From the IMG/VR virus record IMGVR_UViG_3300032132_000248, positions 6,895 through 70,894 of that record: a stretch of 64,000 nt of DNA. The stretch is one strand, 5' to 3'. Below are positions 3,259 to 16,448 of the stretch, in pieces. The translations under genes and the position numbers were made by a program. Within the stretch, counting starts at the first letter, position 1. Every line of letters begins with the position of its first letter. The notes under the pieces were generated by a model. The model was not told where the DNA came from, made no database searches, and saw only the letters and a list, made by a program, of their open reading frames with translations. Origin of the DNA: a virus.

Positions 3259-4482
3259 CTAAAAAGTTAATAACCCTAAAATTTGATTTACTGGTGCAAA
3301 TGCGCCAGTGAATTTGTAAACTTTACCTTTATACTTAAATACAATTCCTTCTGATGGAACTATAGAATCTAACCCGCCTATTGAATTTAATTTACTTACT
3401 TGTAGTTTTAATGCTTCCAATTTCTTAATATCTTTGGCGGTTTTTACTTTAGCTATTGCTCCAATTACATTCTTTCTTATTTTTTGTACTGCATCATCTG
3501 GAGATGCGGCTAAGTATCCACTGATATTTTTTAAAATTTCAGTTCCTACTGCAAAAAATAAAACTTCAAAAGGCCTCATATTTTGTTTTACCATTTTTTG
3601 ATGATCTACCTTATCTGTAGTTAATACCCAATCCAAAAAATCAGGATATTTCTTAAAATCTTTTTTAATCATTGGTATTTTATATGATTTATCAAAGAAT
3701 GCCCAACGTTTTACTAAAGATTTATATGCTTTATTTGTTATTTTTACTCTAAATTGTTTTTCTGCGTTAAAAATAAATTCTTCCCAATACCTTTGATGGT
3801 AAAGTGCTAAAGTATCTTTATCTTTTAATGCATATTCTTTTTGTAATTTACTTAACCTACTTAAAAAAGTTTTCTTCTTAGCATCAAAGTTTTGTGATTT
3901 AGGAACACTTAAAAATTGTGGTTTACCAATTTTATAATGTTTTTGTATATGTTGATTAACTTGTTTAATCATACCAGCTAACATTCTTGCAGACCCTTTA
4001 GGCTGTCCTATAGGATTTCCACTATCATCATATTCTAAAGTACCGTGAAATACTATTTGTGCTTTATCATAATCTATGACATTTGATGACTTAGGCCACA
4101 TAACTTCGAGATTCATCCATCTCTTACCATTACCAAAAACCTTTTCCTTTTGAGCATCCGATAACGCTCCTATAGATTTACTTAAATCTTTCATTGCAAA
4201 AACAAATGCATTTTTAATATCACCCCTACCTGCAAATTTAGAAGCAACACCTTTAGTAGTCATAGCCTTTTCACCAAAATTCTTTAATTGTCCTTTATTT
4301 CTGGCTGTAACTAATTTTCCATCTTTCCAACTAATCATTAAATTTTGACCATCTAATTTTTCTGTAACACCATCTTCTCTATTAAGATTTCCGCCTAATC
4401 CATCAGTAATTATTTTCTTTAAATCTCCAAATGTCAAATCTTTATCATCAAATGGATGATTCATATGTCCATATGCTCCACC
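3259..4482 (-). other. Domain: covalent nucleotidyltransferase (RNA ligase-like, DUF6267-like)
   Basis: GGAYGHMNHPFD start, motif I TEKLDG, ARNK, motif III NLEV, motif IV SEGIVF, motif V YKFTG. Confidence 0.65.
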
Positions 4483-7400
4483 TTCAATTAATAAATCTAA
4501 ATCCTCAACTATTGATATTTTTTCAGACAAACTTTTTACATATTTTTTAGCCGCCTTATCTCCTTTATTTTTAGCCACCCATTGAACTGCACTTTTACGA
4601 CTTATTGTTTTCTTTCTACCTTTTGGATTGGGGTTTTTTACTGTATCAGGTGCGTTCGCCATAAACTTTCCTGCATCTTTCTTTTCTGCATCTGATTTCT
4701 TTTGTTTCCGAGCTTTATATGCTCTATAAGCCCCAAATGAAACTCCCGCCGCCATTGTTCCAACACGACCAAAAGCTTTTACATAAGGTGCTGTCAACCC
4801 TGTCGCTGCTCCCACTGCAGTTAATACTAAAAACTTAGTTCCCATTTCACCACTAAATAACTGTGCAAATGAAACATCTCCAACCGCCGCCGCTGTCGCT
4901 GCAGCTGATAAATCTAAATCATATTCTGGGTCTCCGATAAAAGTCATCTTTGTCCATGCGTAAGTTACCGCTGCTGCCGCACCTATACCCATTACTCTTT
5001 TTAGTTTTGGATGTTCTCTGAGATAATTATCTAATTTAACTAAAGACTTTTCTTTCTTTTGCCCAAATTTAGTTGTTGCTAATTTCTGTGCTATCTTATC
5101 AGGTACATAATTAATAATTTTTTGATATGCTTTAAATCCTTTCTTAGCGCCCTCAAATACTTTATCCACACTAAAATCATTTAATTTAGCAACAGAAAAA
5201 GTATTCTTATTCATCATAGACTTTCTAACTTTAGATAATGGTTGTTTTGCCCTTTTAGACCAATCTTTTAGAAAGTTATTAAACTTGACTCCCTCTTCTA
5301 AAGTCATACCTTCTATTATAACCGATTCTGTTGCAGATTCTTGTTTCTTCCATCCACCTACAACATCGCCCATTGAATATGAGTGTGATGCACCTGGTGT
5401 TACTATAGCAACAGTTTTGCCATCAGATTCTATTTCTTTTATTTTTTTATCCATTTGAATATCACGAGCTTTATTGAAAGATTTAGCTGATTTTCCAGCT
5501 TTACCTTTAACTAAACTACTTAAATGGTCTTTACCATATTTCTTTTCTGCCCATTTAAAATCTTTATGTCCAGACTCAAAATCACCAGGATATGACATTA
5601 GATATAATAATTGTTTATCAGCTTCGTAATCTGCATCACCCTCTAATGATTCAACTTCTCCATTACCTGATCCTGGTGGAAATCCACCTTTATACCCAGC
5701 ATCTCTTAATGCTTTTTTATTTTGTTTAGTTAATTTATCTGCGGGAACAGAATCCTCATCACCTTGACCAAACATATTTGCAAACATAAAAGCCTGTTCT
5801 TCCTCTTTTATATTTCCTGTTTCGTCTGCGATTTGGTCATATATTGGCGCGTCTGGATTTGATATATCTGAATTTTCTCCATCCCAAGTTTTTACACAAT
5901 CTATTTTATCACCAAACTCTTTCTTTAATTCTTTAACTATATATTCTTGTTCATCTCCACCACCACCTGCAAATGGATCATCATCACTTTTACCACCTTC
6001 AGTCAAAAAACAAACTTTCTTTTTTGCATCTAATGCATCTTTTACTTTCTGTTTTACTTCAGGAAGTACCTTATTCTCTATTGCCCAATTTTTTGAATGT
6101 TCTATAGCATAAATATCCGTATCTTGTTCTTCATCATATACCTTATGACCATGATTTGTTCCAATTATACTACTTCCACCCTCTGTTTGATGTATATAAT
6201 TGTCTCTCCAACGATTTTCTTTAAAACCTTCCTCTGTGTTATCTCCAAAATCTGGAGCATTATCATAATCTTTATAATTTAGATTAAAAGGATCTCTTTC
6301 TTTTTTACCTGATGGATTATCTGGTTCTACATTTTTAGAAGTTTTATGTTTACTTATATAATCTTGTTGAGCGTCTACCGACTTATCCGTCCAGTATTCT
6401 TCGCCAGCTTCTTTTAACAATTCTTTATTCCACCACTCTTTTGAAAACAACTTTGATTCTTTTAAATCAGTATTTTCTGTTTCATCATCTGCTCCAGGTA
6501 ATACTGGTTCTTGTACTTGTACTTTTAACACATTATCTTCTAAACCTAACCACTTAATAACTTCAAATCCTAAATTAGACAATACAAAATTTAATCTTTC
6601 TTTATACTTGTTATGTAAATTACGTTCACTCTGTCTACCCTTTATTCCTACAGTTCCATAAGAAGGTGTTGGCATAAATCTATAATTTAATGTATAATCA
6701 AAAGCTGGGTCATGTGCTTCATCAGCAAGCATATAATTTAAAACTGTCCATCCTGTTTCTTTAAAAATAGAATCTAACCACTCAGTAGATCCTTTTTTAT
6801 AATCGCCAAAACCTTTATAATAATGAGCGGGCCCATCATCTATAGGAGCATTAGTCTGAAAAGTTGCTTCATTCAAATATTTTGATACATCTACATCTAC
6901 TAAAAATTCATTTATAAGTTCTTTTGTTATTACAACATTTTCACCAAATAATTTACTAAATTTATTAGTCATCATATTATAAACACCTTTATCAAAATAA
7001 CCAAAGAATTTTTTAAATCTCCGTTCCCTATCATCTGCATACTTTGGTGAACCTAGTAATTGTCTCATAGCAGTACCACTTACTTCCATACCACCTGCCT
7101 GTATAGAAAAATGTGGAGCGGTTAAAATATATCCATGTTTATTATGACCCACTAAATTTTTCTTATTCTTTTTATAATCTTGATAATAAGTTTTTTCGCC
7201 ACCCTTTTTTGTACCACCAGATAATCTATCAGCATCTTTCTTTCCAAAAATATAAACTACTGCAGTAGTATCTTCTGTAAACTTTTTAAGTGTATTTACC
7301 GCGACATATGGTTGTCTTTCTTTAACAATTTTATTAGATGGAATTCCCATTTTAAGCATATGTCGTTTCTTCTCTTTAAAATTCATTGGATGTTTAGGTG

Positions 7401-10400
7401 GTTTTTTGATGTCTGATGTAGTTATATACGCATCATCAAATTGTTTCTTCATCCACTCATATACTTTTTTATGATGAGGTCCAAATGGTTGAAACCTACC
7501 TGCATATATTCCTACTATTTTTTTAATCTTTGAAGTTTCCTCTTTAAATAATTTATCAGCTTTCCAAATATCTTTTGGATCTTGTGCCATATCTAAAACT
7601 TGTATTCTAGCTTTCGTAACTCCATGTTTTGCTGTTAATATTTTTATTATCTTTTTAGCTTCGGAATGAGATTTGGCTTTTGTATAAAGTATATCTTCTT
7701 GTCTCTTACCTGGAGGAATACCCCAAATTACAAATTCTTTTTTACTTTCATTAATATTTTCACCAAGTAATCTTAATAATTGTGTCATTACTAATGGATT
7801 GTTAGAAAGAAATGTTTGTAATTTACTTATATTCTTAGCATAATTTTTTGGTAATACGTTTTTATCAATTAATGTTTTCAATGCCTTTTTCATCTTTGGT
7901 TTATTTACAAATTCCAAAATAAAATCTTCATCAACTTTTAAACCACCCGTATCCATTTTATCACTAAATTTTTTCAATTTATCATAAGACCTAAATTGTT
8001 TTAACTTTCTTTGTTTTGCTATCTTCATGACATCTACATTCTTAACTCTCATATGTTGTTTTACTATATAATAAATATCAACTGGATTACCACCCATTGA
8101 TTTAATCCACGTACGATATTTCTTAACTAATTTAGCAGAAACATGTTCATGTCCATAATGAGTTGGATGTCCTTTTTTTGGATGAATGCCTGCGGTTTCA
8201 TCTTTACCTATATCGTGGAATAATGCAGCCAGTGCCAAATCTATATCACCTGGATTCAATTTCATTGCTCTATTAACTACAGTTATAGTATGTTTTAAAA
8301 CATTACCCTCTGGATGAGCATCTTTTCTCTGCGTTACCTTTTTTAAATCCATTACTCTCTTTTTTAAATCAGATGGTAATGCAGTATATAAATCTCTGAA
8401 TGATTTAATTGGTCTAATTGCTATTTCATTTAAAAATTTCTCTTTCTCCTTTGTTTTTATTGCTTTACCTATTTCAGGCCCTTTTAAATCTTTAGAAACA
8501 TCTTTACTACCAACAGATAATTTAAATTTAGCCATCTTTACAACATCTGACTCATTACCAATTAATTTTCCATATTCCTTTATTTGAGCAATTGTTAAAT
8601 TTGTTTTTTCTTGAAACTTCTTAAACATATAAATTTCTTCTGATTTAAAATTCTGTAAAGATACTAAAAATAATACATTTGTAGATTCCTTAACTGTATA
8701 TCGCATGGAATTTAATTTATTACCTAATTTACCAGGATTATTATCTTTTAACAAATATGCAAGTTGTACTATATAATCTTTAGAATTTATAAATTTTTTA
8801 TTTATGCTAAGTCCTGGCAATATTTGTTGTAACATTCCAAGATTATTAGCCAATTGAAGATATTTCTTTGGTGATTTTGCTTTAATCAAACTCTTTACAA
8901 ATTCTTCTCTAATTCTTTCACTACTTACTCCATTTAAACTTGGGTTTTTCTTTAATGCTGCAAATGTATCTACATGCATCGTTCCACCAAGTGCTGCATT
9001 AAATCGTAGTGCTCGTAGTTTTCTTAATGGGTCTTCATCGAATCTTTCATCTGCTAATCCTACTGTACGAACTTGTTTCTTTTTTAAATCTTTAATTCCA
9101 CCTACCAAATCTACTATAGTATTTTTATCAATATCATAAAATAAAGCATTGATAGTAAGATCTCTACGTTTAACATCTCCTTTTATATCAGTAAAATCTA
9201 CCGCATCTGGTCTCCTACCTTTACCAATATCTTTTCTGAATGTAGCAATCTCATGTCCATTAACCATAACAACACCAAAAGATTTTCCAACTTCTACTGT
9301 TTTAAATTTACCTTGTTTTGCAATAGCTAATACTTCGTCTGGTTTGGCGTCAGTTGCCATATCAAAATCTTTTGGACTTTTACCCAAGATGGCATCTCTC
9401 ACAGCTCCACCTACCACATAAAGTTGTTTTCTATTCTTTTTAAATAACTTATGTATTTTTTTTATATCTGCTGGTATATTTAATTTTAATTTTTGTTTAG
9501 CTTCATCTATCGTACGATATTGGTCATCTTCTCTTTCTTTATCTAATTTTTTCTTGATTTTCCTAACTTTTTTAGGATCGGGTGCACCAGATATAGTTCC
9601 ATCTCCAGCAGTTATTCCAATAAACTCTTTAACAATTTTTTGTTTTTCAATCCACTTTTTAGCTTGTCTGCTTTTTATTGGTTTTTTAATAAATTTACCA
9701 ATACCCTTTTTCACCAACATATTAAACTTTTTCTGTGCTTGTTTTGGATTTAAAGTAGCATTATTATCAACTAACATAAAATTAGAACCACCAAACATCC
9801 CTTGAAAATATGCCATATTTTTTTGTACATTATTCCAATATTTTTCTACAAGTTCAGAAGGTAAAATTCTATCTCTTAATTTATTTCTCATTTGTGCAAC
9901 TTCTAATGAGGTATTTACAAATACCATATAGGTATCATAACCTAAATCAATCAATTTTTGTCGTTCTTTCTTAACATCTTTAAATTTATGACCAGTTCCA
10001 TCTATAATAACTCCAAGTCTACCTTGTGAATATAACTTTAATCTTTGTTTACTCAAGGCTTTAGCATGTTTTCTAACACCCATATGTGCACTATAACTTG
10101 GGTCTGTAATCTGTCTAAATAAATCATCTGGCATATTATCTAAATCCGTTGTACCAAAGTATTTTTTCAGAAAATTTTCTAATTCTGTATCTTGATTAAC
10201 AAGTTTTAATCCATAAGCAGAAACATTTACTTTATCTGGTATTCCAAACAATCCACCAGCAACATATGACTTTCCACTTCCAGGACCACCTGCAAGAAAA
10301 ACTGCTTTAAATATACCTGGGTCATTTACTCCTTCTCTAATAGAACGATTTAATCTACCATAAACCCGCTTCTGTCGCTTTCTCATACCCAACCCTGTAG

Positions 10401-10650
10401 GTATCCAATTTTTAGGCCACTCTTCAGTAACTTCTTCTTTATCAAAAATATTAGTTTTGGGCATTAATCTGAACTTTAAAGCTGGTCTACCGTTTATTAG
10501 TAAATCACCTTTTTCATTCCAATCTATTTTCTTAACGACTACCTTTTTGTTTTTAAATTTTCCCATCTTGACTGTATCACCAATCTCTATAGGTAAATCT
10601 ACACTCTCATCCAAAAAAGGTTTAGTTAACCATTCAGTTAATTTATCCAT
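3259..10650 (-). CDS. 2463-aa multidomain (poly)protein: P-loop kinase, CCA-adding enzyme, HD hydrolase, HIGH nucleotidyltransferase, TraB/Tiki-like, membrane-helix and KxDG ligase-like domains
   Basis: GGPGSGKS; GGAVRD...DFD...RRDLTINA...EDPLRKLRALRF; HT...LFHDIGK...H...H; GRFQPFGPHH...SGTAMR; GTNH...E...RDxxM...GASH; EKLDG...EGIV...YK. Confidence 0.85.
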   Translation of the reverse strand: MDKLTEWLTKPFLDESVDLPIEIGDTVKMGKFKNKKVVVKKIDWNEKGDLLINGRPALKFRLMPKTNIFDKEEVTEEWPKNWIPTGLGMRKRQKRVYGRLNRSIREGVNDPGIFKAVFLAGGPGSGKSYVAGGLFGIPDKVNVSAYGLKLVNQDTELENFLKKYFGTTDLDNMPDDLFRQITDPSYSAHMGVRKHAKALSKQRLKLYSQGRLGVIIDGTGHKFKDVKKERQKLIDLGYDTYMVFVNTSLEVAQMRNKLRDRILPSELVEKYWNNVQKNMAYFQGMFGGSNFMLVDNNATLNPKQAQKKFNMLVKKGIGKFIKKPIKSRQAKKWIEKQKIVKEFIGITAGDGTISGAPDPKKVRKIKKKLDKEREDDQYRTIDEAKQKLKLNIPADIKKIHKLFKKNRKQLYVVGGAVRDAILGKSPKDFDMATDAKPDEVLAIAKQGKFKTVEVGKSFGVVMVNGHEIATFRKDIGKGRRPDAVDFTDIKGDVKRRDLTINALFYDIDKNTIVDLVGGIKDLKKKQVRTVGLADERFDEDPLRKLRALRFNAALGGTMHVDTFAALKKNPSLNGVSSERIREEFVKSLIKAKSPKKYLQLANNLGMLQQILPGLSINKKFINSKDYIVQLAYLLKDNNPGKLGNKLNSMRYTVKESTNVLFLVSLQNFKSEEIYMFKKFQEKTNLTIAQIKEYGKLIGNESDVVKMAKFKLSVGSKDVSKDLKGPEIGKAIKTKEKEKFLNEIAIRPIKSFRDLYTALPSDLKKRVMDLKKVTQRKDAHPEGNVLKHTITVVNRAMKLNPGDIDLALAALFHDIGKDETAGIHPKKGHPTHYGHEHVSAKLVKKYRTWIKSMGGNPVDIYYIVKQHMRVKNVDVMKIAKQRKLKQFRSYDKLKKFSDKMDTGGLKVDEDFILEFVNKPKMKKALKTLIDKNVLPKNYAKNISKLQTFLSNNPLVMTQLLRLLGENINESKKEFVIWGIPPGKRQEDILYTKAKSHSEAKKIIKILTAKHGVTKARIQVLDMAQDPKDIWKADKLFKEETSKIKKIVGIYAGRFQPFGPHHKKVYEWMKKQFDDAYITTSDIKKPPKHPMNFKEKKRHMLKMGIPSNKIVKERQPYVAVNTLKKFTEDTTAVVYIFGKKDADRLSGGTKKGGEKTYYQDYKKNKKNLVGHNKHGYILTAPHFSIQAGGMEVSGTAMRQLLGSPKYADDRERRFKKFFGYFDKGVYNMMTNKFSKLFGENVVITKELINEFLVDVDVSKYLNEATFQTNAPIDDGPAHYYKGFGDYKKGSTEWLDSIFKETGWTVLNYMLADEAHDPAFDYTLNYRFMPTPSYGTVGIKGRQSERNLHNKYKERLNFVLSNLGFEVIKWLGLEDNVLKVQVQEPVLPGADDETENTDLKESKLFSKEWWNKELLKEAGEEYWTDKSVDAQQDYISKHKTSKNVEPDNPSGKKERDPFNLNYKDYDNAPDFGDNTEEGFKENRWRDNYIHQTEGGSSIIGTNHGHKVYDEEQDTDIYAIEHSKNWAIENKVLPEVKQKVKDALDAKKKVCFLTEGGKSDDDPFAGGGGDEQEYIVKELKKEFGDKIDCVKTWDGENSDISNPDAPIYDQIADETGNIKEEEQAFMFANMFGQGDEDSVPADKLTKQNKKALRDAGYKGGFPPGSGNGEVESLEGDADYEADKQLLYLMSYPGDFESGHKDFKWAEKKYGKDHLSSLVKGKAGKSAKSFNKARDIQMDKKIKEIESDGKTVAIVTPGASHSYSMGDVVGGWKKQESATESVIIEGMTLEEGVKFNNFLKDWSKRAKQPLSKVRKSMMNKNTFSVAKLNDFSVDKVFEGAKKGFKAYQKIINYVPDKIAQKLATTKFGQKKEKSLVKLDNYLREHPKLKRVMGIGAAAAVTYAWTKMTFIGDPEYDLDLSAAATAAAVGDVSFAQLFSGEMGTKFLVLTAVGAATGLTAPYVKAFGRVGTMAAGVSFGAYRAYKARKQKKSDAEKKDAGKFMANAPDTVKNPNPKGRKKTISRKSAVQWVAKNKGDKAAKKYVKSLSEKISIVEDLDLLIEGGAYGHMNHPFDDKDLTFGDLKKIITDGLGGNLNREDGVTEKLDGQNLMISWKDGKLVTARNKGQLKNFGEKAMTTKGVASKFAGRGDIKNAFVFAMKDLSKSIGALSDAQKEKVFGNGKRWMNLEVMWPKSSNVIDYDKAQIVFHGTLEYDDSGNPIGQPKGSARMLAGMIKQVNQHIQKHYKIGKPQFLSVPKSQNFDAKKKTFLSRLSKLQKEYALKDKDTLALYHQRYWEEFIFNAEKQFRVKITNKAYKSLVKRWAFFDKSYKIPMIKKDFKKYPDFLDWVLTTDKVDHQKMVKQNMRPFEVLFFAVGTEILKNISGYLAASPDDAVQKIRKNVIGAIAKVKTAKDIKKLEALKLQVSKLNSIGGLDSIVPSEGIVFKYKGKVYKFTGAFAPVNQILGLLTF
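5340..6408 (-). other. Domain: TraB/PrgY/Tiki (EreA/ChaN-fold)-like
   Basis: IIGTNH ... VCFLTEG ... ARDIQMDKKI ... VAIVTPGASH match the GTxH / E / RxxxM / GAxH order of the family. Confidence 0.55.
6940..7536 (-). other. Domain: HIGH-superfamily nucleotidyltransferase (cytidylyltransferase/NMNAT/PPAT-like)
   Basis: IVGIYAGRFQPFGPHH, HPMNFKEK, FGKKD, VSGTAMR. Confidence 0.75.
7927..8424 (-). other. Domain: HD phosphohydrolase of the type associated with CCA enzymes/PNKP
   Basis: QRKDAHPEGNVLKHT...ALFHDIGK...HYGHEHVS...VKQHM. Confidence 0.85.
8425..9501 (-). other. cca: Domain: class II CCA-adding / poly(A) polymerase family tRNA nucleotidyltransferase
   Basis: Motif A VGGAVRD..LG..PKDFD, motif B RRDLTINAL, motif D EDPLRKLRALRF, motif E SSERIREE, tail KGPEIGKAI. 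Confidence 0.9.
9625..10332 (-). other. Domain: P-loop kinase (zeta-toxin/AAA_33/polynucleotide kinase-like)
   Basis: KAVFLAGGPGSGKS, LVNQD, VIIDGTG, MVFVNTSLEVAQMRNKLRDR (lid RxxxR). Confidence 0.8.
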
Positions 10651-10675: not shown

Positions 10676-11170
10676 CTATACTTCCAACGCACGTCTAAAC
10701 CACCCAAACAAAAATCTTTCCTGCTCAGGTTTTCTCGCTACTAAATCCATATAATATTTAACTCTATAGCAACGAACTCTATCTAATTCGGGGGTATGTT
10801 TTGCTAATGCTGCCTTTGTTCCAGGTCCAAAACCACCATCAACTGTTAACTTACCACCTTTACCATTTATTGCTCTCTGTAATATTTTGACTGCCGAACC
10901 TCTTCCCTGATTGACTGCCATATCAAAGAATATATGTTTTAAGTTTTCTGGTAAGTCATCTACCTTATTCTTATCCCAATAGTCTTTTTTATAAATATCT
11001 TTTGCCTGCTCTTTGGTTAAATTTTTAATATCTACATCTGGATAAAATCTTTTTGCGATTCCAAAATTAGTTTCCCCGCCTAAATCTTTTGGATCATTAA
11101 CGTAACCGCCTTCGTGTTCTAATGTTAATTCAATTATCTCGTCAAATGACGTTAAAACTTCTTCTCGCAT
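10676..11170 (-). CDS. Endolysin, glycoside hydrolase family 108 with peptidoglycan-binding segment
   Basis: EHEGGYVNDPKDLGGETNFGI, FDMAVNQG, VDGGFGPGT, FLFGWFRR. Start at 11170 has an AGGAG RBS (the track starts at 11257). Confidence 0.9.
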   Translation of the reverse strand: MREEVLTSFDEIIELTLEHEGGYVNDPKDLGGETNFGIAKRFYPDVDIKNLTKEQAKDIYKKDYWDKNKVDDLPENLKHIFFDMAVNQGRGSAVKILQRAINGKGGKLTVDGGFGPGTKAALAKHTPELDRVRCYRVKYYMDLVARKPEQERFLFGWFRRALEV

Positions 11171-11261
11171 TGTATTGCTCCTACTATTTTGATCTGTTTC
11201 AATATTGCTTTTTTTAAACAATGAAATCAAAAATTCTATTATTTTACGTAATTCCATTACT

Positions 11262-11282: not shown

Positions 11283-12983
11283 TTACTTTGTAACTTTAGA
11301 TTTTTCCTTTATAGGTTTAATATCTGATTTTCCTGTTAATTTATAACCCAAAACTTCAGCATTTTTCTGTCTTGTTTTTTCAAATACTGCTAGGTCTTTT
11401 TTTCCCATTAATTCTGAGCTACCAAATCCTTCTTCTATTTCAAGTGATTCTTTCTCATATTTATCTTTAATTTTACCTATTTCTGCATGAGATTTTCTTT
11501 TACCCGCGGCTTGTTGTATTTTACGCATTCCTTCTTTACCATATTTTTTTACACCAGCACGATATAAAATACCACTTTCATCTACGGATTCGGATTTCCA
11601 TCCTTTTTGTTGTGCCATTTTATCTATTTTAAGCCACTCTCCCCCCAACTTACGTTCCATTTTTTTCCAATCTCTTGGGTTAGTTTTTGCCATCCGCTTA
11701 AAAAATCTCCACATGCCTTCCCAATTAGGTTCTACATTAATAGTTCTAGCTTCATTTACGGATTCGTTCGCAAGTCGAAGAGCATCTTTTACTTTTTTGT
11801 CGTTAGACAATCCCTTTTTAATTTTTTCAATCTTCTTAGTAGCCCCCGTCATATTACCACTCATTTCTATAGCTATCGATATTGCTTTCTTTTGATAAGA
11901 ACTTAATTTTCTCTCATTTACAGATTCCTTAATTTTCATCTTTAATTGAGTTTTTGGAGCACTTCTCATATATCTTATAACACTCTCTATGGCTGTTCTA
12001 AAATTGTGATTATCTTTATTTTTAATTGCTCTCTCAAAATTCTTTTGCATCGTTGGAAAAAATTTATTTCTTATAAAAATGCCGTGAGCTATTCGCCATT
12101 CTTTATCGGTTAAAATTTTAGCTTCATTTACGGATTCTTCAGAACAACACTCTTTACCTTCTTTACAATTACCACAACAATCTTTACCACCTTCTAACTT
12201 AGCTTTACGTTTTATTAATTCTTTTGCAATCATTCTAAAAATTAACGCAGCCCCACTAGATAATCTTTCATCCGCCATCTGTTTATATATTTTTACTAAT
12301 TTTTTTGTAGGTGTTTTTGGAATCTGAGAACCTGCCATAATTTCATTTACAGATTCACTTTTAACTTTATTTCCTAACAATTTTTTCCAATCATCCGCCT
12401 GTAGCGATATTGAATTTACTCTTATGTTACCATAATTTACATTATCCCAATCTCTGACTCCACTTGCACCAATAACTTTAGCGGCCTTTTTCCTGAAATC
12501 ATTTGGGATTATATCTTTTCCAAATCTAGCCACTCTTACATCAATCCAGGGATTATGATTAGCTTGTTTTATAACTTTAACTCTTAATGGTACTTTAAAA
12601 AGTTTTTGTAAATAGGGTTTTAATTTTCTTGCATACTTCGGATATTGTGCCCATTCATCTCTTGAAATAGCTTCTTTCTTTAACCTACTCTTTTCGGCTC
12701 TACCACGATTAGTTGATTCTTTTTCGAATCCCACTATTTTGCCTCCCTTGTGTGATGCATCTTTACCATCATTATTACCATAAGTACCCTTTTGTCTATT
12801 ATATTTATTTAATTCTGCTCTGTATTTTTTTGCTTTATCAGATGACTGAAATTTTTTATATTCATCCTTATAATCCCTTTTCTTTTCCTCGTCTACAGAT
12901 TCTTCTTCCTTTTCCCACTTCTTAGCCATTTTAGGTTTATTAGCGTGCATCCATTTTCTCTGTTTTTCTGATTTGAAAGGCAT
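11283..12983 (-). CDS. 566-aa modular basic protein: small domains separated by ESV[ND]E linkers; first module HNH-like
   Basis: Six ESVNE/ESVDE motifs; N-terminal MPFKSEKQRKWMHANKP; RDYKDEY...DGKDASH...NRGR resembles a degenerate HNH. Confidence 0.75.
   Translation of the reverse strand: MPFKSEKQRKWMHANKPKMAKKWEKEEESVDEEKKRDYKDEYKKFQSSDKAKKYRAELNKYNRQKGTYGNNDGKDASHKGGKIVGFEKESTNRGRAEKSRLKKEAISRDEWAQYPKYARKLKPYLQKLFKVPLRVKVIKQANHNPWIDVRVARFGKDIIPNDFRKKAAKVIGASGVRDWDNVNYGNIRVNSISLQADDWKKLLGNKVKSESVNEIMAGSQIPKTPTKKLVKIYKQMADERLSSGAALIFRMIAKELIKRKAKLEGGKDCCGNCKEGKECCSEESVNEAKILTDKEWRIAHGIFIRNKFFPTMQKNFERAIKNKDNHNFRTAIESVIRYMRSAPKTQLKMKIKESVNERKLSSYQKKAISIAIEMSGNMTGATKKIEKIKKGLSNDKKVKDALRLANESVNEARTINVEPNWEGMWRFFKRMAKTNPRDWKKMERKLGGEWLKIDKMAQQKGWKSESVDESGILYRAGVKKYGKEGMRKIQQAAGKRKSHAEIGKIKDKYEKESLEIEEGFGSSELMGKKDLAVFEKTRQKNAEVLGYKLTGKSDIKPIKEKSKVTK
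11577..12902 (-). repeat. Six dispersed 15-bp repeats GAATCYGTARAYGAR encoding ESV[ND]E
   Basis: Copies at 11577-11591, 11751-11765, 11913-11927, 12123-12137, 12342-12356 and 12888-12902. Confidence 0.9.
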
Positions 12984-12989
12984 TTGGAA

Positions 12990-13355
12990 CTACATTCCTC
13001 TAGATTTTCTAATTTTCATAGATTTAGCACGTTTCTTCAAAATTTTTGACATTTTACGTTTTCTTTTAATTGCCGCCTTTTTTGCTCCTCTTCTTTTTCT
13101 AAATTTTTCAGCTCCACCAACCCTAACACATTGTTTTTTTGTAGATACATACTTTTTACCTTTAGGACAAATAACTCTATATTTAGCTTTTTTACCACGA
13201 ACTACCCGTTTTCTTTTCAATTCTGATAAAAATGCCCTCATCAAATAAGACATTTCCGTATCATCATTTAATATATCTTCTGTTATTTCCTCAAAAAACC
13301 CATCTTTATAGGCTTCCCTAATAACTTCTCGTAATTGTGCTTCAGTTATTTTCAT
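12990..13355 (-). CDS. Prohead core protein (T4 gp68-like) with MKITxAQLRExIRE leader
   Basis: Very basic C-terminus RKRRGAKKAAIKRKRK...KRAKSMKIRKSRGM resembles gp68-type core proteins; head-module context. Confidence 0.55.
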   Translation of the reverse strand: MKITEAQLREVIREAYKDGFFEEITEDILNDDTEMSYLMRAFLSELKRKRVVRGKKAKYRVICPKGKKYVSTKKQCVRVGGAEKFRKRRGAKKAAIKRKRKMSKILKKRAKSMKIRKSRGM

Positions 13356-13362
13356 TTTATTT

Positions 13363-13782
13363 TTACCACACTCGGTTAATTATTGTTTGTAATTTTTTAA
13401 ATTGCATAGCTAACAACTTTAAATTCTGTTCTTCATCAAATTCTTTACTGTCCTTAACTTCATTACTTTTCCAACCCATTCCTTGACCTACATACCCTGA
13501 AAAAAACCCAGAATATGAAGTTTTTCCTTTAATAAGATGTTTTTCTATTATACCGTATGATGGATTATCTTTATGTTTCACATCAAATTTTGCCACCTTT
13601 AATGTTTTGATGTGCCCACCTTTTTCAATTGAAAATTTGTGCATTTTACCATCAACTTTTACTTTCGTCCTTTTTATTAACGCTTTTTCTTCCTTTGTCC
13701 ATTCGGCATTTTCTGTGGCTTCTTTAATAGATTGAATTTCTTCCCTAATGATTTCTCGTAATTGTGCTTTAGTTATTTTCAT
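13363..13782 (-). CDS. Hypothetical internal head protein with MKITKAQLREIIREE leader
   Basis: Likely start is ATG 13782, just after the upstream stop; leader nearly identical to that at 13355 at protein and DNA level. Confidence 0.65.
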   Translation of the reverse strand: MKITKAQLREIIREEIQSIKEATENAEWTKEEKALIKRTKVKVDGKMHKFSIEKGGHIKTLKVAKFDVKHKDNPSYGIIEKHLIKGKTSYSGFFSGYVGQGMGWKSNEVKDSKEFDEEQNLKLLAMQFKKLQTIINRVW

Positions 13783-13783
13783 T

Positions 13784-14020
13784 TTAATATCCCACTTTTT
13801 GATGTAAGCAAATTGGACAAGTTCTTGAATCATGATCTGGGTCTGTTAAATAAAGTCCTGCCTTCATAACATCCACATCTTCCTTCAGCTCAGTTACTTC
13901 ATACCTAAGCAACGAAACTTCACTTTTCAATTCATCTACGGTTGATAATACCCAACCACCCATTCCTGTTAAAATCAAGGTAGCTCCTGATAAAATTATA
14001 TGTGATATATCCATTTTCAT
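13784..14020 (-). CDS. Small membrane protein (TM helix, coiled coil, C-terminal CxxC)
   Basis: IILSGATLILTGMGGWVL; CPICLH. Confidence 0.55.
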   Translation of the reverse strand: MKMDISHIILSGATLILTGMGGWVLSTVDELKSEVSLLRYEVTELKEDVDVMKAGLYLTDPDHDSRTCPICLHQKVGY

Positions 14021-14616
14021 TATTTATTTTCTTCAATCCAACTAGCGTTTTGTTCACAAATACCTTTTAATGTCTCCAAAGCACTAATGTATTTCTTTAC
14101 ACTACTTTTATTTACATTCTCTAAAGCATCTGATACAGGTAATTTATTTAATTCACTTAACATTTCCATAATTTTTTGATTAACAACACCTACAGCCTTC
14201 ATAGTCTGTTGTCTTTCACGAAGACTCAATGCTTTTTGTTTAAACTCTCCCTGATGGGTATCATACTCTTGTTTAAACTTTTCAACATCACTTTTAAACC
14301 CATATTCTTTAACTTTACTTTCATTAAATTTTTGTAATTCTTCTTTAATGATTTCTTTTATTTGTTCTTTAGAAACTGTTAAATTCATTTTCTTCCTTTT
14401 AGAAGATCGTTTTTGACCTACCTTTTTCTTTAATAAAGCCAATAATTTAGCATTCTTTTCTTTATCTGTATCAAAGGTTATTTCCATCCCTACTTTATCA
14501 TCCGGGAGTTGAGGTTTTATTATAGTAATCTTTACCTTCATAATTCCAGCGTCTTTAGTCATTGGTAATATTGTTTTTTTCATAAAATCTATATTACCTT
14601 TTATAGTTTGTTTCAT
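14020..14616 (-). CDS. Hypothetical protein with internal leader-like motif (SKEQIKEIIKEELQKFNE)
   Basis: ORF track; start adjusted to MKQTIKG after the upstream stop. Confidence 0.6.
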   Translation of the reverse strand: MKQTIKGNIDFMKKTILPMTKDAGIMKVKITIIKPQLPDDKVGMEITFDTDKEKNAKLLALLKKKVGQKRSSKRKKMNLTVSKEQIKEIIKEELQKFNESKVKEYGFKSDVEKFKQEYDTHQGEFKQKALSLRERQQTMKAVGVVNQKIMEMLSELNKLPVSDALENVNKSSVKKYISALETLKGICEQNASWIEENK

Positions 14617-14617
14617 T

Positions 14618-14944
14618 TCATTTCCCCTTAAACGAATCAATAGCTCTAAAAACTGGCATCTGATTCTTCAATTTCTTAATTTTTGATTCAACCCTACTAA
14701 ATTCTTTTTGAACATTTACTAAATCTTTATATAATTTATTTAAAAGTTTATATTCTTTATCCCCCTTCATTCCTTCTCTTTCCATCAAACTTAACATTTC
14801 AACTAAAGAATTAACAAGTAAATGCTGTCTATGTGAATTAGTTGGTACAGCATTAAACATATCATAATGCATATCCAACTGTCTCCGTTGCCAATCAAAA
14901 TTTGGATTTTTACTTTCAATTATTAATTTTTTTAGTTTAATCAT
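14618..14944 (-). CDS. Hypothetical protein with MIKLKKLIIE leader
   Basis: ORF track; leader shared with MIKLKDLIKE at 15167. Confidence 0.6.
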   Translation of the reverse strand: MIKLKKLIIESKNPNFDWQRRQLDMHYDMFNAVPTNSHRQHLLVNSLVEMLSLMEREGMKGDKEYKLLNKLYKDLVNVQKEFSRVESKIKKLKNQMPVFRAIDSFKGK

Positions 14945-14945
14945 C

Positions 14946-15443
14946 TTACATTCTCATATATTTAGCAAAATCTTTAGCACCTTCAATATATCCCAACATT
15001 TCTTTTTTATCTACACCTTTAAAATGTCCACTCTTAATTACAAGTCTTAATATTGCAGCAGCATTTTTATTTTTATGTTTCATTACTAATCCCTGCAATA
15101 TATCTGCTTGATCTTTAGATAATATACCCATTCCACCTTCTTTAATTAAATCTTTTAACTTAATCATTTTACTCTCTTTTTTAACTTTCTTTTTCTTTTT
15201 ATCATCAAGTTCCTTACCACTTCGTGAGTGAGAATGTTGAGATTCATCAACTGGTTTCAAATGTTTAACACTTACATTTTCATAAACCCTACTACCAAAT
15301 TTAATATTTACAAATTCTACTTTACCATTTTCCGTTAGTGAATGCCAAGTTACTTCACCAACACCTTTATTTTCATACTTGGGTGACCCCCAAGTTGCGT
15401 GGTGAAATCATGTATGTTGTATTGATTTATTATATTTATCCAT
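14946..15443 (-). CDS. Candidate selenoprotein (165 aa, in-frame UGA at codon 12), His-rich N-terminal domain fused to a MIKLKDLIKE module
   Basis: ATG 15443: MDKYNKSIQHT-UGA-FHHATWGSPKYENKGVGEVTWHSLTENGKVEFVNIKFG... continues in frame into track ORF 14946..15260; a SECIS-like hairpin follows the UGA. Confidence 0.65.
15371..15410 (-). promoter_or_regulatory. Bacterial-type SECIS element
   Basis: mRNA UGA-UUUCA-CCACGCA-ACUUGGG-GGUCA-CCCAAGU-A-UGAAA: perfect 7-bp upper stem 12 nt after UGA, GGUCA loop, 5-bp lower stem. Confidence 0.65.
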
Positions 15444-15444
15444 T

Positions 15445-15717
15445 TTATTTACCACTATGTTTAATTTCTGTTTCTAAAAATACCTTCAATGCATTACGAT
15501 TATATAATGCTGAGTGAGCTTTTTCTACTTCTCCCTTACGAATATACTTAGACACTTCAGTAACAAACCTCTGAATACTTTTTTGCATTTGTTTTCTAGT
15601 CATTACACCATATCCAGGTATCTGTACTTTTGCATCCAAAGGGGACTCCACACCTTTTTTTGGCACAGTTATCTGTGCTTCCTTCAAATTTTTAAGTAAT
15701 GATTTTAAACTAATCAC
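15445..15717 (-). CDS. Hypothetical protein with ISLKSLLKNLKE leader
   Basis: ORF track; GTG start overlaps the upstream TGA. Confidence 0.6.
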   Translation of the reverse strand: MISLKSLLKNLKEAQITVPKKGVESPLDAKVQIPGYGVMTRKQMQKSIQRFVTEVSKYIRKGEVEKAHSALYNRNALKVFLETEIKHSGK

Positions 15718-16412
15718 TTCAATTCTGTCCAATCTTTTGGATTACTATATCGTGATTTATAATACCATTTTTTATCTTTCACAGACCAAACATACCCGTA
15801 TTCTTCACCACTATTAAATTTTACTGCATCCCTATTTTTCCAAGTCTTTGAAAAATTACCTTTCTCGCCTCTATCACGTCCATAAAATACTGTTTGACCG
15901 TCTACTGGTTCAGAAAATGAATGATCTTTTGCGCCACTAATATCCTTATCAATTGAAGAAATACCTTGTTTTCCAAGCTTTAATAACTTTTTTATTTTTG
16001 ATGGATTTTTATAATGTTTTTTCAACATTTTACCAACGTGTTCAGGATATCCATCCCAATGCCCATATACTGATGCTATTTTACCACTCGGTGCTTCAAT
16101 ACCCACCAACCAACGAGTTCCTTCAGTTAATACTGACTTAAGTTCTTCTTTAATTATTTCTTTTAATTGTGATTTAGTTATTTTCATAGGAACTTCCTCT
16201 TTATATAATGATTTCCACTTACCATCTACTTTTTCTATTATATTAAAAACACTATTGCTATTATTCTCATAAGCAATAGCGATAACATTTTCCCCTAATT
16301 TCTTATATGTCTTAACAGTATAAGGATTCTTATACGGGTGGTCAAATTCTGACTCAGACTCCTTCTTATATGTACGAAATTTATCTGATTGCGCCTTTAC
16401 ACCAGATTTCAT
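15714..16412 (-). CDS. Conserved phage protein (GTR...YxHWDGYP...YGRDRGE family) preceded by an internal MKITKSQLKEIIKEE leader
   Basis: Start 16412 (GGAG RBS); second in-frame ATG at 16187 with GAGGA RBS; motif VYGHWDGYPEHVG. Confidence 0.7.
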   Translation of the reverse strand: MKSGVKAQSDKFRTYKKESESEFDHPYKNPYTVKTYKKLGENVIAIAYENNSNSVFNIIEKVDGKWKSLYKEEVPMKITKSQLKEIIKEELKSVLTEGTRWLVGIEAPSGKIASVYGHWDGYPEHVGKMLKKHYKNPSKIKKLLKLGKQGISSIDKDISGAKDHSFSEPVDGQTVFYGRDRGEKGNFSKTWKNRDAVKFNSGEEYGYVWSVKDKKWYYKSRYSNPKDWTELK

Positions 16413-16448
16413 ATTAATCACTCCAATTTTAATGATAAGTACTCTATG

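Follow-up and report, generated by a model that had tools for sequence, protein, structure and literature searches.

The internal proteins of phage T4, namely IPI, IPII, IPIII, and Alt, are small and basic and vary strongly from one related phage to another (PMC9026906, PMC3012670, PMC12373910). They carry capsid-targeting leaders of 10-19 residues, which are removed at an L/I-X-E site; the T4 protease gp21 cuts after this motif, and no processing occurs if Asp stands at the cut position (PMC9026906). The propeptide of T4 gp23 comprises 65 residues, and the T4 core proteins are cut to several fragments, which mostly leave the head (PMC9026906). Here, we describe an array of mini-proteins that resembles this system and is encoded by a single open reading frame (ORF) of an uncultured marine T4-like phage, IMG/VR record IMGVR_UViG_3300032132_000248 (70,894 bases). 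The window analyzed, a stretch of 64,000 nucleotides, corresponds to bases 6895-70894 of the record; its GC content is ~29%, and every gene lies on the - strand. The array ORF (11283..12983, - strand) encodes a protein of 566 residues with an isoelectric point (pI) of ~10, in which nine modules, A-I, are joined mainly through six ESV[ND]E linkers. With a probability of roughly 0.65, we consider the array to be a capsid-cargo polyprotein that is cut by the head protease and whose linkers also act as in-frame recombination joints.

The array shares with the T4 internal proteins the small size, basic character, and variability of its units, a gp21-family protease among the head genes, and, in standalone forms of its modules, a short leader ending in hydrophobic-X-Glu. 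Glu is needed at the cut in T4, and Asp, which blocks processing there, was never seen at this position of the array linkers. The array differs in that many cargo units are fused in frame and an internal linker replaces the leader of each gene; this linker has the fixed form ES-V/I-N/D-E, is conserved in its codons, has mainly Val or Ile three residues before the cut (P3), and is known here from sequence alone. No similarity to the named internal-protein families was detected in Pfam and PHROGs, a search that did not include a direct comparison with the T4 internal protein sequences.

Three further systems are close to the array. In phages phiKZ and SPN3US, diverged gp21 homologs process many head proteins at A/S/G-X-E, the cut following Glu; some precursors, SPN3US gp53 among them, are cleaved at several sites, and much of the giant-phage cargo is ejected (PMC10052503). 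However, these cuts mostly take N-terminal propeptides off single proteins, and P3 is Ala, Ser, or Gly, whereas it is Val or Ile in the array; the accessible part of PMC10052503 describes neither shuffled arrays of unrelated modules nor a DNA-conserved linker. Polyvalent proteins of phages and conjugative elements (Iyer et al., 2017; PMC5512222) unite 2-15 unrelated domains in one polypeptide, for which joint travel with the DNA and proteolytic release are predicted. With nine modules in eight families the array lies within this range; a neighboring ORF of 2463 residues fits as well, and relatives mix its enzymes with small modules. The hallmark polyvalent domains (zincin-like peptidase, ART, helicase, LPD) and an embedded peptidase were not detected by Pfam in the array or in the 73 of 120 related arrays searched. 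In contrast to polyvalent proteins, the array modules are mini-proteins of no known family and would be released by a separate enzyme, the prohead protease, acting in trans on a standard linker. The third system, the promoter-stem-loop (PeSL) cassettes of T4-like phages, consists of short conserved sequences that flank variable units, act as crossover points, and delimit insertions, deletions, and replacements among near-identical phages (PMC2839356). Likewise, a conserved short sequence bounds the insertions and deletions between close phages in the array, as seen when the window is compared with the related records L008 and L007. PeSLs are intergenic, reach up to ~100 bp, contain a promoter and a terminator, and move whole genes (PMC2839356). 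The array joint, in contrast, is a 15-nucleotide in-frame coding sequence within one ORF, with no flanking conservation. The T-even internal-protein loci of Repoila et al. 1994 reportedly consist of variable cargo genes that share a conserved leader sequence; these are separate genes and not an in-frame array. No published description of such arrays was found in literature titles and abstract openings, supplementary files being outside this search; among the full-text matches listed for "ESVNE," none concerned phages, and the accessible part of a 2025 paper on large aquatic phages (PMC12619734) makes no mention of such proteins.

The pattern GAATCYGTARAYGAR matched six times, always on the - strand and inside the array ORF. 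From the N-terminus, the matches were linker 1 (ESVDE, GAATCTGTAGACGAG; 12888..12902), linkers 2-5 (all ESVNE; 12342..12356, 12123..12137, 11913..11927, and 11751..11765), and linker 6 (ESVDE; 11577..11591). None of 100 dinucleotide-preserving shuffles contained a match (mean 0.00); no seventh copy was found in the whole 70,894-base record, and the reversed control pattern gave 0 matches. The Val codon was GTA in 6/6 linkers, and Ser was encoded by TCC in three and TCT in three. The 15-mer is the main direct-repeat family of the array gene; a repeat search listed 5/6 copies, with spacings of 174, 162, 210, and 219 nucleotides, each divisible by 3. Weaker repeat families in the gene measured 13-28 nucleotides, those of 27-28 nucleotides being 68-78% alike. 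The segments between linkers are 32, 182, 73, 70, 54, 58, and 97 residues long, and alignment breakpoints divided the 182- and 97-residue segments into two modules each, with extra junctions at SRLKKE↓A (residue 104) and LEIEE↓G (residue 518), where the arrow follows the junction Glu. The segments fall into eight different similarity families and are mutually unrelated at the BLAST level; all modules are basic (pI 9.1-10.4) and measure 4-13 kDa. An earlier note on this DNA, made from the letters, had described six DNA-conserved ESV[ND]E motifs with invariant GTA and three TCC codons between unrelated basic modules, and all of this was confirmed. Its statement that the modules are mostly 50-75 residues long held for 4/7 segments, the exceptions being those of 32, 182, and 97 residues.

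Relatives of the array are numerous; the counts given here and below refer to related, non-independent metagenomic sequences picked for their similarity to the query. A word-indexed search yielded 2557 proteins of 311-991 residues at E <= 0.001 among 8000 candidates scored, and an exhaustive search of 50%-identity cluster representatives yielded 1467 matches, 208 of them at E <= 1e-30. In the 120 best matches ESVNE was the commonest 5-mer (258 occurrences vs. 117 for the next), and 111/120 contained at least one ES[VIL][NDE]E. The relatives matched the array piecewise, with 50-95% identity and modules in other orders. When the 120 arrays were split at junction motifs and subjected to greedy clustering, 682 segments were obtained, which formed 206 families and 111 different architectures; modules were 80-100% identical across phages while their combinations varied. 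Among longer relatives, one had 2140 residues with 17 linkers and another had 1755 residues with 18 linkers.

The comparison with close phages showed where their module content differs. Records L007, L008, L009, L010, and L015 have the gene order of the window (array, endolysin, giant ORF, orf183, large terminase), and the nucleotide identity of their backbone to the window is 91-97% (91-94% for L008). The array of L008 nevertheless consists of five other modules followed by a Cys-rich unit and C, G, H, and I, whereas that of L007 consists of B, C, and D, a different module, a leader-like unit, and I. Module C of the window and L008 is 78.7% identical at the nucleotide level, and the alignment stops at the final base of linker 2; the G-H-I block, 97.9% identical in L008, L009, L010, and L015, begins at the first base of linker 5. 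In L008 these two alignments overlap by exactly the 15-nucleotide linker; thus, D-E-F are absent from L008. At the protein level, similarity to P0003, P0008, and P0004 was lost entirely right after a linker, in the case of P0003 and P0008 at linker 3. Of the internal ends of protein high-scoring segment pairs (HSPs), 22-24% were no more than 5 residues away from a strict linker vs. 6.8% for random positions, and the modal distance was 0. At the nucleotide level, the distance to a linker was 6 nucleotides or less for 50/78 internal HSP starts and 53/117 internal ends, whereas such positions occupy 9.7% of the gene. The earlier note had proposed that the repeats could act as points of module gain, loss, or shuffling; module content is not invariant among the orthologs, and the different module sets of L007 and of the L008 group, as well as the blocks of sharply different nucleotide identity bounded by the 15-nucleotide linker, are in line with this proposal.

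The mosaic could arise artificially if chimeric contigs were joined at the repeated 15-mers. All data are metagenomic, the modules are common to co-occurring phages, and the Logan contigs fragment within the array gene, as expected from such an artefact. However, the same architecture recurs in L008, L009, L010, and L015, and a 15-nucleotide repeat is below the usual assembly word length. In addition, contig pieces from two other runs, X6 (records 1 and 4) and X7 (records 11 and 12) bridged 4/6 linkers without differences, with at least 31 letters on both sides; linkers 1 and 5 had no two-sided bridging of 31 letters among the pieces listed. Loose contig ends were located at 12903, the edge of linker 1 (X6, 2 records), at 11759, inside linker 5 (X7, 1 record), and elsewhere. 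No module-skipping joint was found among the listed pieces of runs X22, X6, X7, and X9, of which the raw-read run contributed only 4 reads. The recurrent architecture, the shortness of the repeat, and the bridged linkers make an artefactual origin hardly credible. The phage was also traced elsewhere: 11 runs from several studies contained at least half of the sampled words.

The linkers are conserved at the DNA level beyond the requirements of the peptide. In a set of 113 distinct linkers from 79 loci and the window, with the same ORFs as the background, Ser was encoded by TCC in 64/113 (57%) vs. 6.9% and by AGT in 1/113 vs. 34%; Val was GTA in 82/93 vs. 46%, Ile was ATA in 20/20 vs. 45%, and the first Glu was GAA in 113/113 vs. 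86%. The conserved block covers the 15-18 nucleotides of the linker, and the flanks are flat. In diverged homologous pairs, identical residues had the same codon at a rate of 0.956 in linkers vs. 0.647 in modules (9 pairs), or 0.903 vs. 0.788 when 25 pairs were taken. At least two in-frame consensus 15-mers occurred in 18/80 loci among the IMG/VR matches listed, vs. 0/80 listed for a synonymous control. Codon-pair context does not explain this preference: beyond the linkers, TCC accounts for 9.9% of the Ser codons that follow Glu, and GTA for 40% of the Val codons that precede Asn.

The constraint on synonymous sites and its limitation to 15-18 nucleotides would also be expected if the DNA or RNA itself were functional, as a recombination hotspot, nuclease site, or regulatory site, and the peptide were incidental. 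Junctions with quite different DNA (LFNE, KIDE, IDE, ESIKE), however, keep the phi-x-E motif (phi, hydrophobic residue), and the residue after the predicted cut (P1') is preferably small. Searches for a nucleic acid function were negative. GANTC, a site contained in the linker as GAATC, had 166 matches in the window vs. 153 +/- 11.5 in shuffles, which is not unusual. The TAA-ATG of the +1 frame opens ORFs of just 4-16 residues, and linker 1 lacks the ATG. The octamer TATAAATA, which we take to be the T4 late-promoter motif, had 26 matches vs. 26.3 expected, and the - strand had none in the 11-16.6 kb stretch. Searches with Rfam and ARAGORN returned 0 matches and 0 tRNAs, respectively. A purely nucleic acid element is therefore very unlikely. 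The uniformity of the linkers cannot be explained by the recent common descent of whole units, since the flanking modules are unrelated, and in T4-type recombination a short homology suffices (PMC2839356). We favor recombination within the linker over selected uniformity as the process that keeps the linkers alike. A stronger version, in which the 15 nucleotides are a dual-purpose part, that is, a head-protease site and a uniform frame-keeping recombination joint maintained by second-order selection or constant conversion, is put forward only tentatively.

The head genes of the record are of the T4 type. The window starts with a T4-type large terminase, whose best named relatives are those of Microcystis phage Mel-JY01 and Flavobacterium phage immuto (56-58% identity). 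The 6.9 kb of the record outside the window encode a T4-type portal (Portal_T4, PF07230, E 1.5e-73) followed by three small ORFs. Also beyond the window, ~8 kb downstream of the array, is a Peptidase_S77 prohead protease of the gp21 family (G000:C1:2646-3269, - strand; PF03420, E 4.3e-27; phrog_207, E 1e-52), after which acidic scaffold-like ORFs come; the order of the head genes is that of T4, 20-67-68-21-22. The GELxHP and G[IV]SSRG motifs of the protease are conserved and align with T4 gp21; the motifs GELxHP and GxSSRG presumably hold the catalytic residues of gp21-type proteases. Of five long related records with array genes, four encode a gp23-type capsid protein together with an S77 protease, and in L092 and L094 array-type genes lie between the protease and capsid genes. 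A linker-like ESVE was also noticed in a non-array protein, a conserved acidic head-cluster protein (L086 2-1069; L094) ending in ..YKRISESVEP or ..YRKINESVES.

All six linkers read V-[N/D]-E and fit the hydrophobic-X-Glu processing motif. Glu directly preceded the modules in nearly all distinct contexts, that is, in 43/43 for H, 24/24 for G, 11/11 for I, 33/33 for C, and 24/25 for F (135/136 in total). P3 before the modules was mostly V, I, L, or F; the residue after ES[VI][ND] was Glu in 775/822 cases and never Asp, and P1' was A, S, or G in 244/383. The site of T4 gp23, FLTE↓A (E65), aligns with QLIDE↓S/A and QLVKE↓A in the capsid proteins of related records, and the C-terminal ITE↓S of T4 gp21 aligns with MQE↓S and VNE↓S. 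The linker thus fits the cutting rule of gp21 at the level of sequence. Among shorter relatives (n = 686), modules F and H occur as standalone proteins behind leaders of 10-11 residues, such as MIKLQDILFNE↓RKLSS.., MIKLKDLYNE↓SGILY.., and MKLTRSQLKEMVREEIWKLKKIDE↓SGILY.., and begin at the same residue as behind ESVNE in the arrays. The proposal of the earlier note that each VNE or VDE is a head-protease site was upheld in that the linker is a good candidate for such a site, given the encoded S77 protease, the near-invariant Glu, and the aligned gp23 site; the analogy with T4 internal proteins, also drawn there, was strengthened by the standalone modules, whose leaders end in the same motif.

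According to the mechanism that we propose, nine unrelated small basic modules would be translated as one chain destined for the phage head, with each junction offering a [V/I]-[N/D]-E↓[A/S/G] site to the phage's own T4 gp21-type prohead serine protease. The chain would be built into the prohead core and then cut by the protease into separate small proteins. The released proteins would remain associated with the DNA and probably pass into the host alongside it, as T4 internal proteins do; by this analogy, the modules may be injected effectors. The near-identical 15-nucleotide linker would be the place of recombination at which modules are gained, lost, and exchanged in frame.

A chain that is never cut and works whole, like beads on a string, for example in multivalent DNA binding or condensation, with ESVNE as a hinge or docking motif, would account for the retention of the ES prefix, which a gp21-type site does without, and for the basic character of all modules. 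The low confidence of the whole-chain ESM Atlas model (predicted TM score, pTM, 0.23) is also what flexible multi-domain proteins are expected to give. A hinge would not require Glu, yet the Glu before the modules is invariant whatever precedes it, and Asp never takes its place. Moreover, the same modules stand alone behind short phi-[ND]-E leaders with the same start residue, and the motif matches the aligned maturation site of the capsid protein. We regard an uncleaved chain as unlikely.

The chain could also be cut by the head protease and yet be a disposable core or scaffold filler, comparable to T4 gp22, gp67, and gp68, that is expelled before DNA packaging. T4 core proteins suffer such a fate, being cut to fragments that mostly leave the head (PMC9026906). 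The array genes of relatives sit among scaffold and core genes, and in P0127 and P0147, proteins at the prohead-core (gp67/gp68) position, module G is inserted at a phi-x-E site, between ESVKE and ESINE. Nevertheless, the modules share their basic character with the T4 internal proteins that are retained, whereas the scaffold-like ORFs of the record are acidic; the 80-100% identity of modules in varying combinations fits selected functions, and enzyme domains occur in the same polyproteins. This explanation appears rather improbable.

Several observations weigh against the capsid-cargo reading. Every T4-like phage encodes a prohead protease, so that finding one carries little weight by itself. 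A gp21-type site requires neither the ES prefix nor the codon conservation, and both are absent from the capsid-protein and protease sites. The B-C junction, RLKKE↓A, has Lys at P3 in place of a hydrophobic residue. The standalone homologs and the neighbors in the window have leaders of 10-15 residues, whereas the array itself begins with the 27-residue module A of different sequence; module A is unlike the short leaders, of which there are at least four types. Junction types other than the strict linker must exist, because only 22-24% of the protein HSP ends lie there, and the density of phi-[ND]-E-[ASG] sites in the giant neighboring ORF is not above the window background. Cleavage, packaging, and ejection are predicted from sequence logic and analogy.

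The modules, all on the - strand, differ in distribution. Module A (12903..12983; residues 1-27) is the N-terminal unit MPFKSEKQRKWMH..KMAKKWEKE, a short relative of DUF3008, a family that Pfam placed at residues 3-59 in 16 of 73 related arrays searched out of 120; one sub-threshold HNH_3 was the other match. Module A heads many arrays as well as poly-Lys/Arg mini-proteins and is a candidate loading signal. In viral contigs L057-L085 it heads proteins of 38-58 residues, the rest of which is a poly-Lys/Arg tail, and these mini-proteins look protamine-like. Module B (12672..12887; residues 33-104) matches phrog_6437, ends in SRLKKE↓A without a canonical linker, and is the most widespread module, with 27 different successors in its family. 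In the ESM Atlas it weakly resembled HNH_3 and DUF5872 clusters in features and structure (score 0.86, TM 0.59-0.75), so that an HNH-type finger is a lead only. Module C (12357..12671; residues 105-209), for which the ESM Atlas returned nothing above the bar, is C-terminal in many relatives and ends there just ahead of the expected linker position. Module D (12138..12341; residues 215-282) includes at its end a mobile Cys-rich mini-unit, CCGNCKEGKECC (12138..12191; residues 265-282), which moves independently of D and in L008 precedes module C behind ESVNE.

Module E occupies 11928..12122 (residues 288-352). Module F (11766..11912; residues 358-406) stands alone behind the leader MIKLQDILFNE in P0128 and occurs in cyanophage C48C1; the presence of F in this deposited genome indicates that such arrays reach T4-like cyanophages. 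In C48C1 (Kyanoviridae; L095 5464-6585), it is located in a 373-residue hypothetical protein between the looser linkers ESVQE, ESVRS, and ESVELEE. Module G (11592..11750; residues 412-464) travels alone in L029-L035, at 88-92% nucleotide identity. Module H (11430..11576; residues 470-518) ends in LEIEE↓G and stands alone behind MIKLKDLYNE and MKLTRSQLKEMVREE..KIDE. Module I (11286..11429; residues 519-566) is a common C-terminal module and is also embedded in giant enzyme polyproteins (P0246). For the array as a whole, Pfam and PHROGs gave only a weak LARP1_HEAT match and phrog_6437, of unknown function; no PDB sequence matched at E up to 1, a PADLOC search was negative, and a structural hint in the ESM Atlas to an LPD29-bearing cluster was below the bar.

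An endolysin with GH108 and PG_binding_3 domains (10676..11257, - strand) separates the array from the giant multi-enzyme ORF (3259..10650, - strand; 2463 residues) and belongs to the context of the array. By Pfam, the giant ORF contains a P-loop kinase, a CCA-adding enzyme, an HD domain, and a cytidylyltransferase; it also has a hydrophobic Gly/Ala-rich stretch and an RNA-ligase-like end with a KxDG motif, which we take to denote an RNA ligase. It looks like a tRNA-repair kit in one polyprotein. Its leader ends in FLDE↓S, and the phi-[ND]-E-[ASG] motif occurs at four candidate sites, following residues 15, 383, 968, and 1261, all of which lie at the leader or between Pfam domains. In the homolog P0246, module B takes the place of the kinase block before TIDE↓A, the junction at residue 383, and module I is embedded behind IINE↓G; this swap and the embedded module indicate that the small modules and the enzymes belong to one system.

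On the other side of the array, seven small ORFs with leaders like the T4 capsid-targeting ones (12990..16421, - strand) have two recurrent leader types. The first, MKIT[KE]xQL[KR]E[IV]I[KR]E, begins at positions 13355, 13782, and 16187, with the related MNLTVSKEQIKEIIKEE at 14388; the second, MIKLK[DK]L, begins at 14944 and 15167. ORF 14946-15260 (MIKLKDLIKE↓GGMGILSKDQ..) has a mature part that recurs as an in-array module behind ESINE in L012. In three of the ORFs (14020-14640, 14946-15260, and 15714-16421) the leader lies far from the called start, suggesting that the protein has two modules or that the start is mis-set. Beyond them, ~47 kb (16467-63858, - strand) consist of unbroken sugar and glycan biosynthesis genes, in the record of a T4-like phage. 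They encode at least six NAD epimerases/dehydratases, a dTDP-sugar epimerase, a DegT aminotransferase, a UDP-glucose dehydrogenase, a carbamoyltransferase, 2OG-Fe oxygenases, seven radical SAM enzymes (five of them B12-binding), four DUF6071 proteins, and three fusions of a GT7-type glycosyltransferase with Laminin_G_3.

If the capsid-cargo reading is true, abundant marine T4-like phages load their capsids from polyproteins of exchangeable parts and not from single leader-tagged genes. The system is widespread: the 50%-identity clusters supply 1467 representatives, and arrays can be as long as 2140 residues. Hundreds of unannotated small protein families would obtain a function class, head cargo, and a simple sequence rule would be available for finding cargo and mature N-termini in metagenomes; the linker would be a natural case of one element that serves both as a protease site and as a standard joint for in-frame recombination. 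The modules form a candidate list for early-acting host-takeover or counter-defence proteins. Should the linker be dual-purpose, a large pangenome of marine T4-like phages would possess an integrase-free cassette exchange for capsid-delivered proteins. Not only small effectors but also entire enzymes, tRNA-repair domains among them, would then be traded in the manner of integron cassettes, and many of the modules would act as counter-defence factors.

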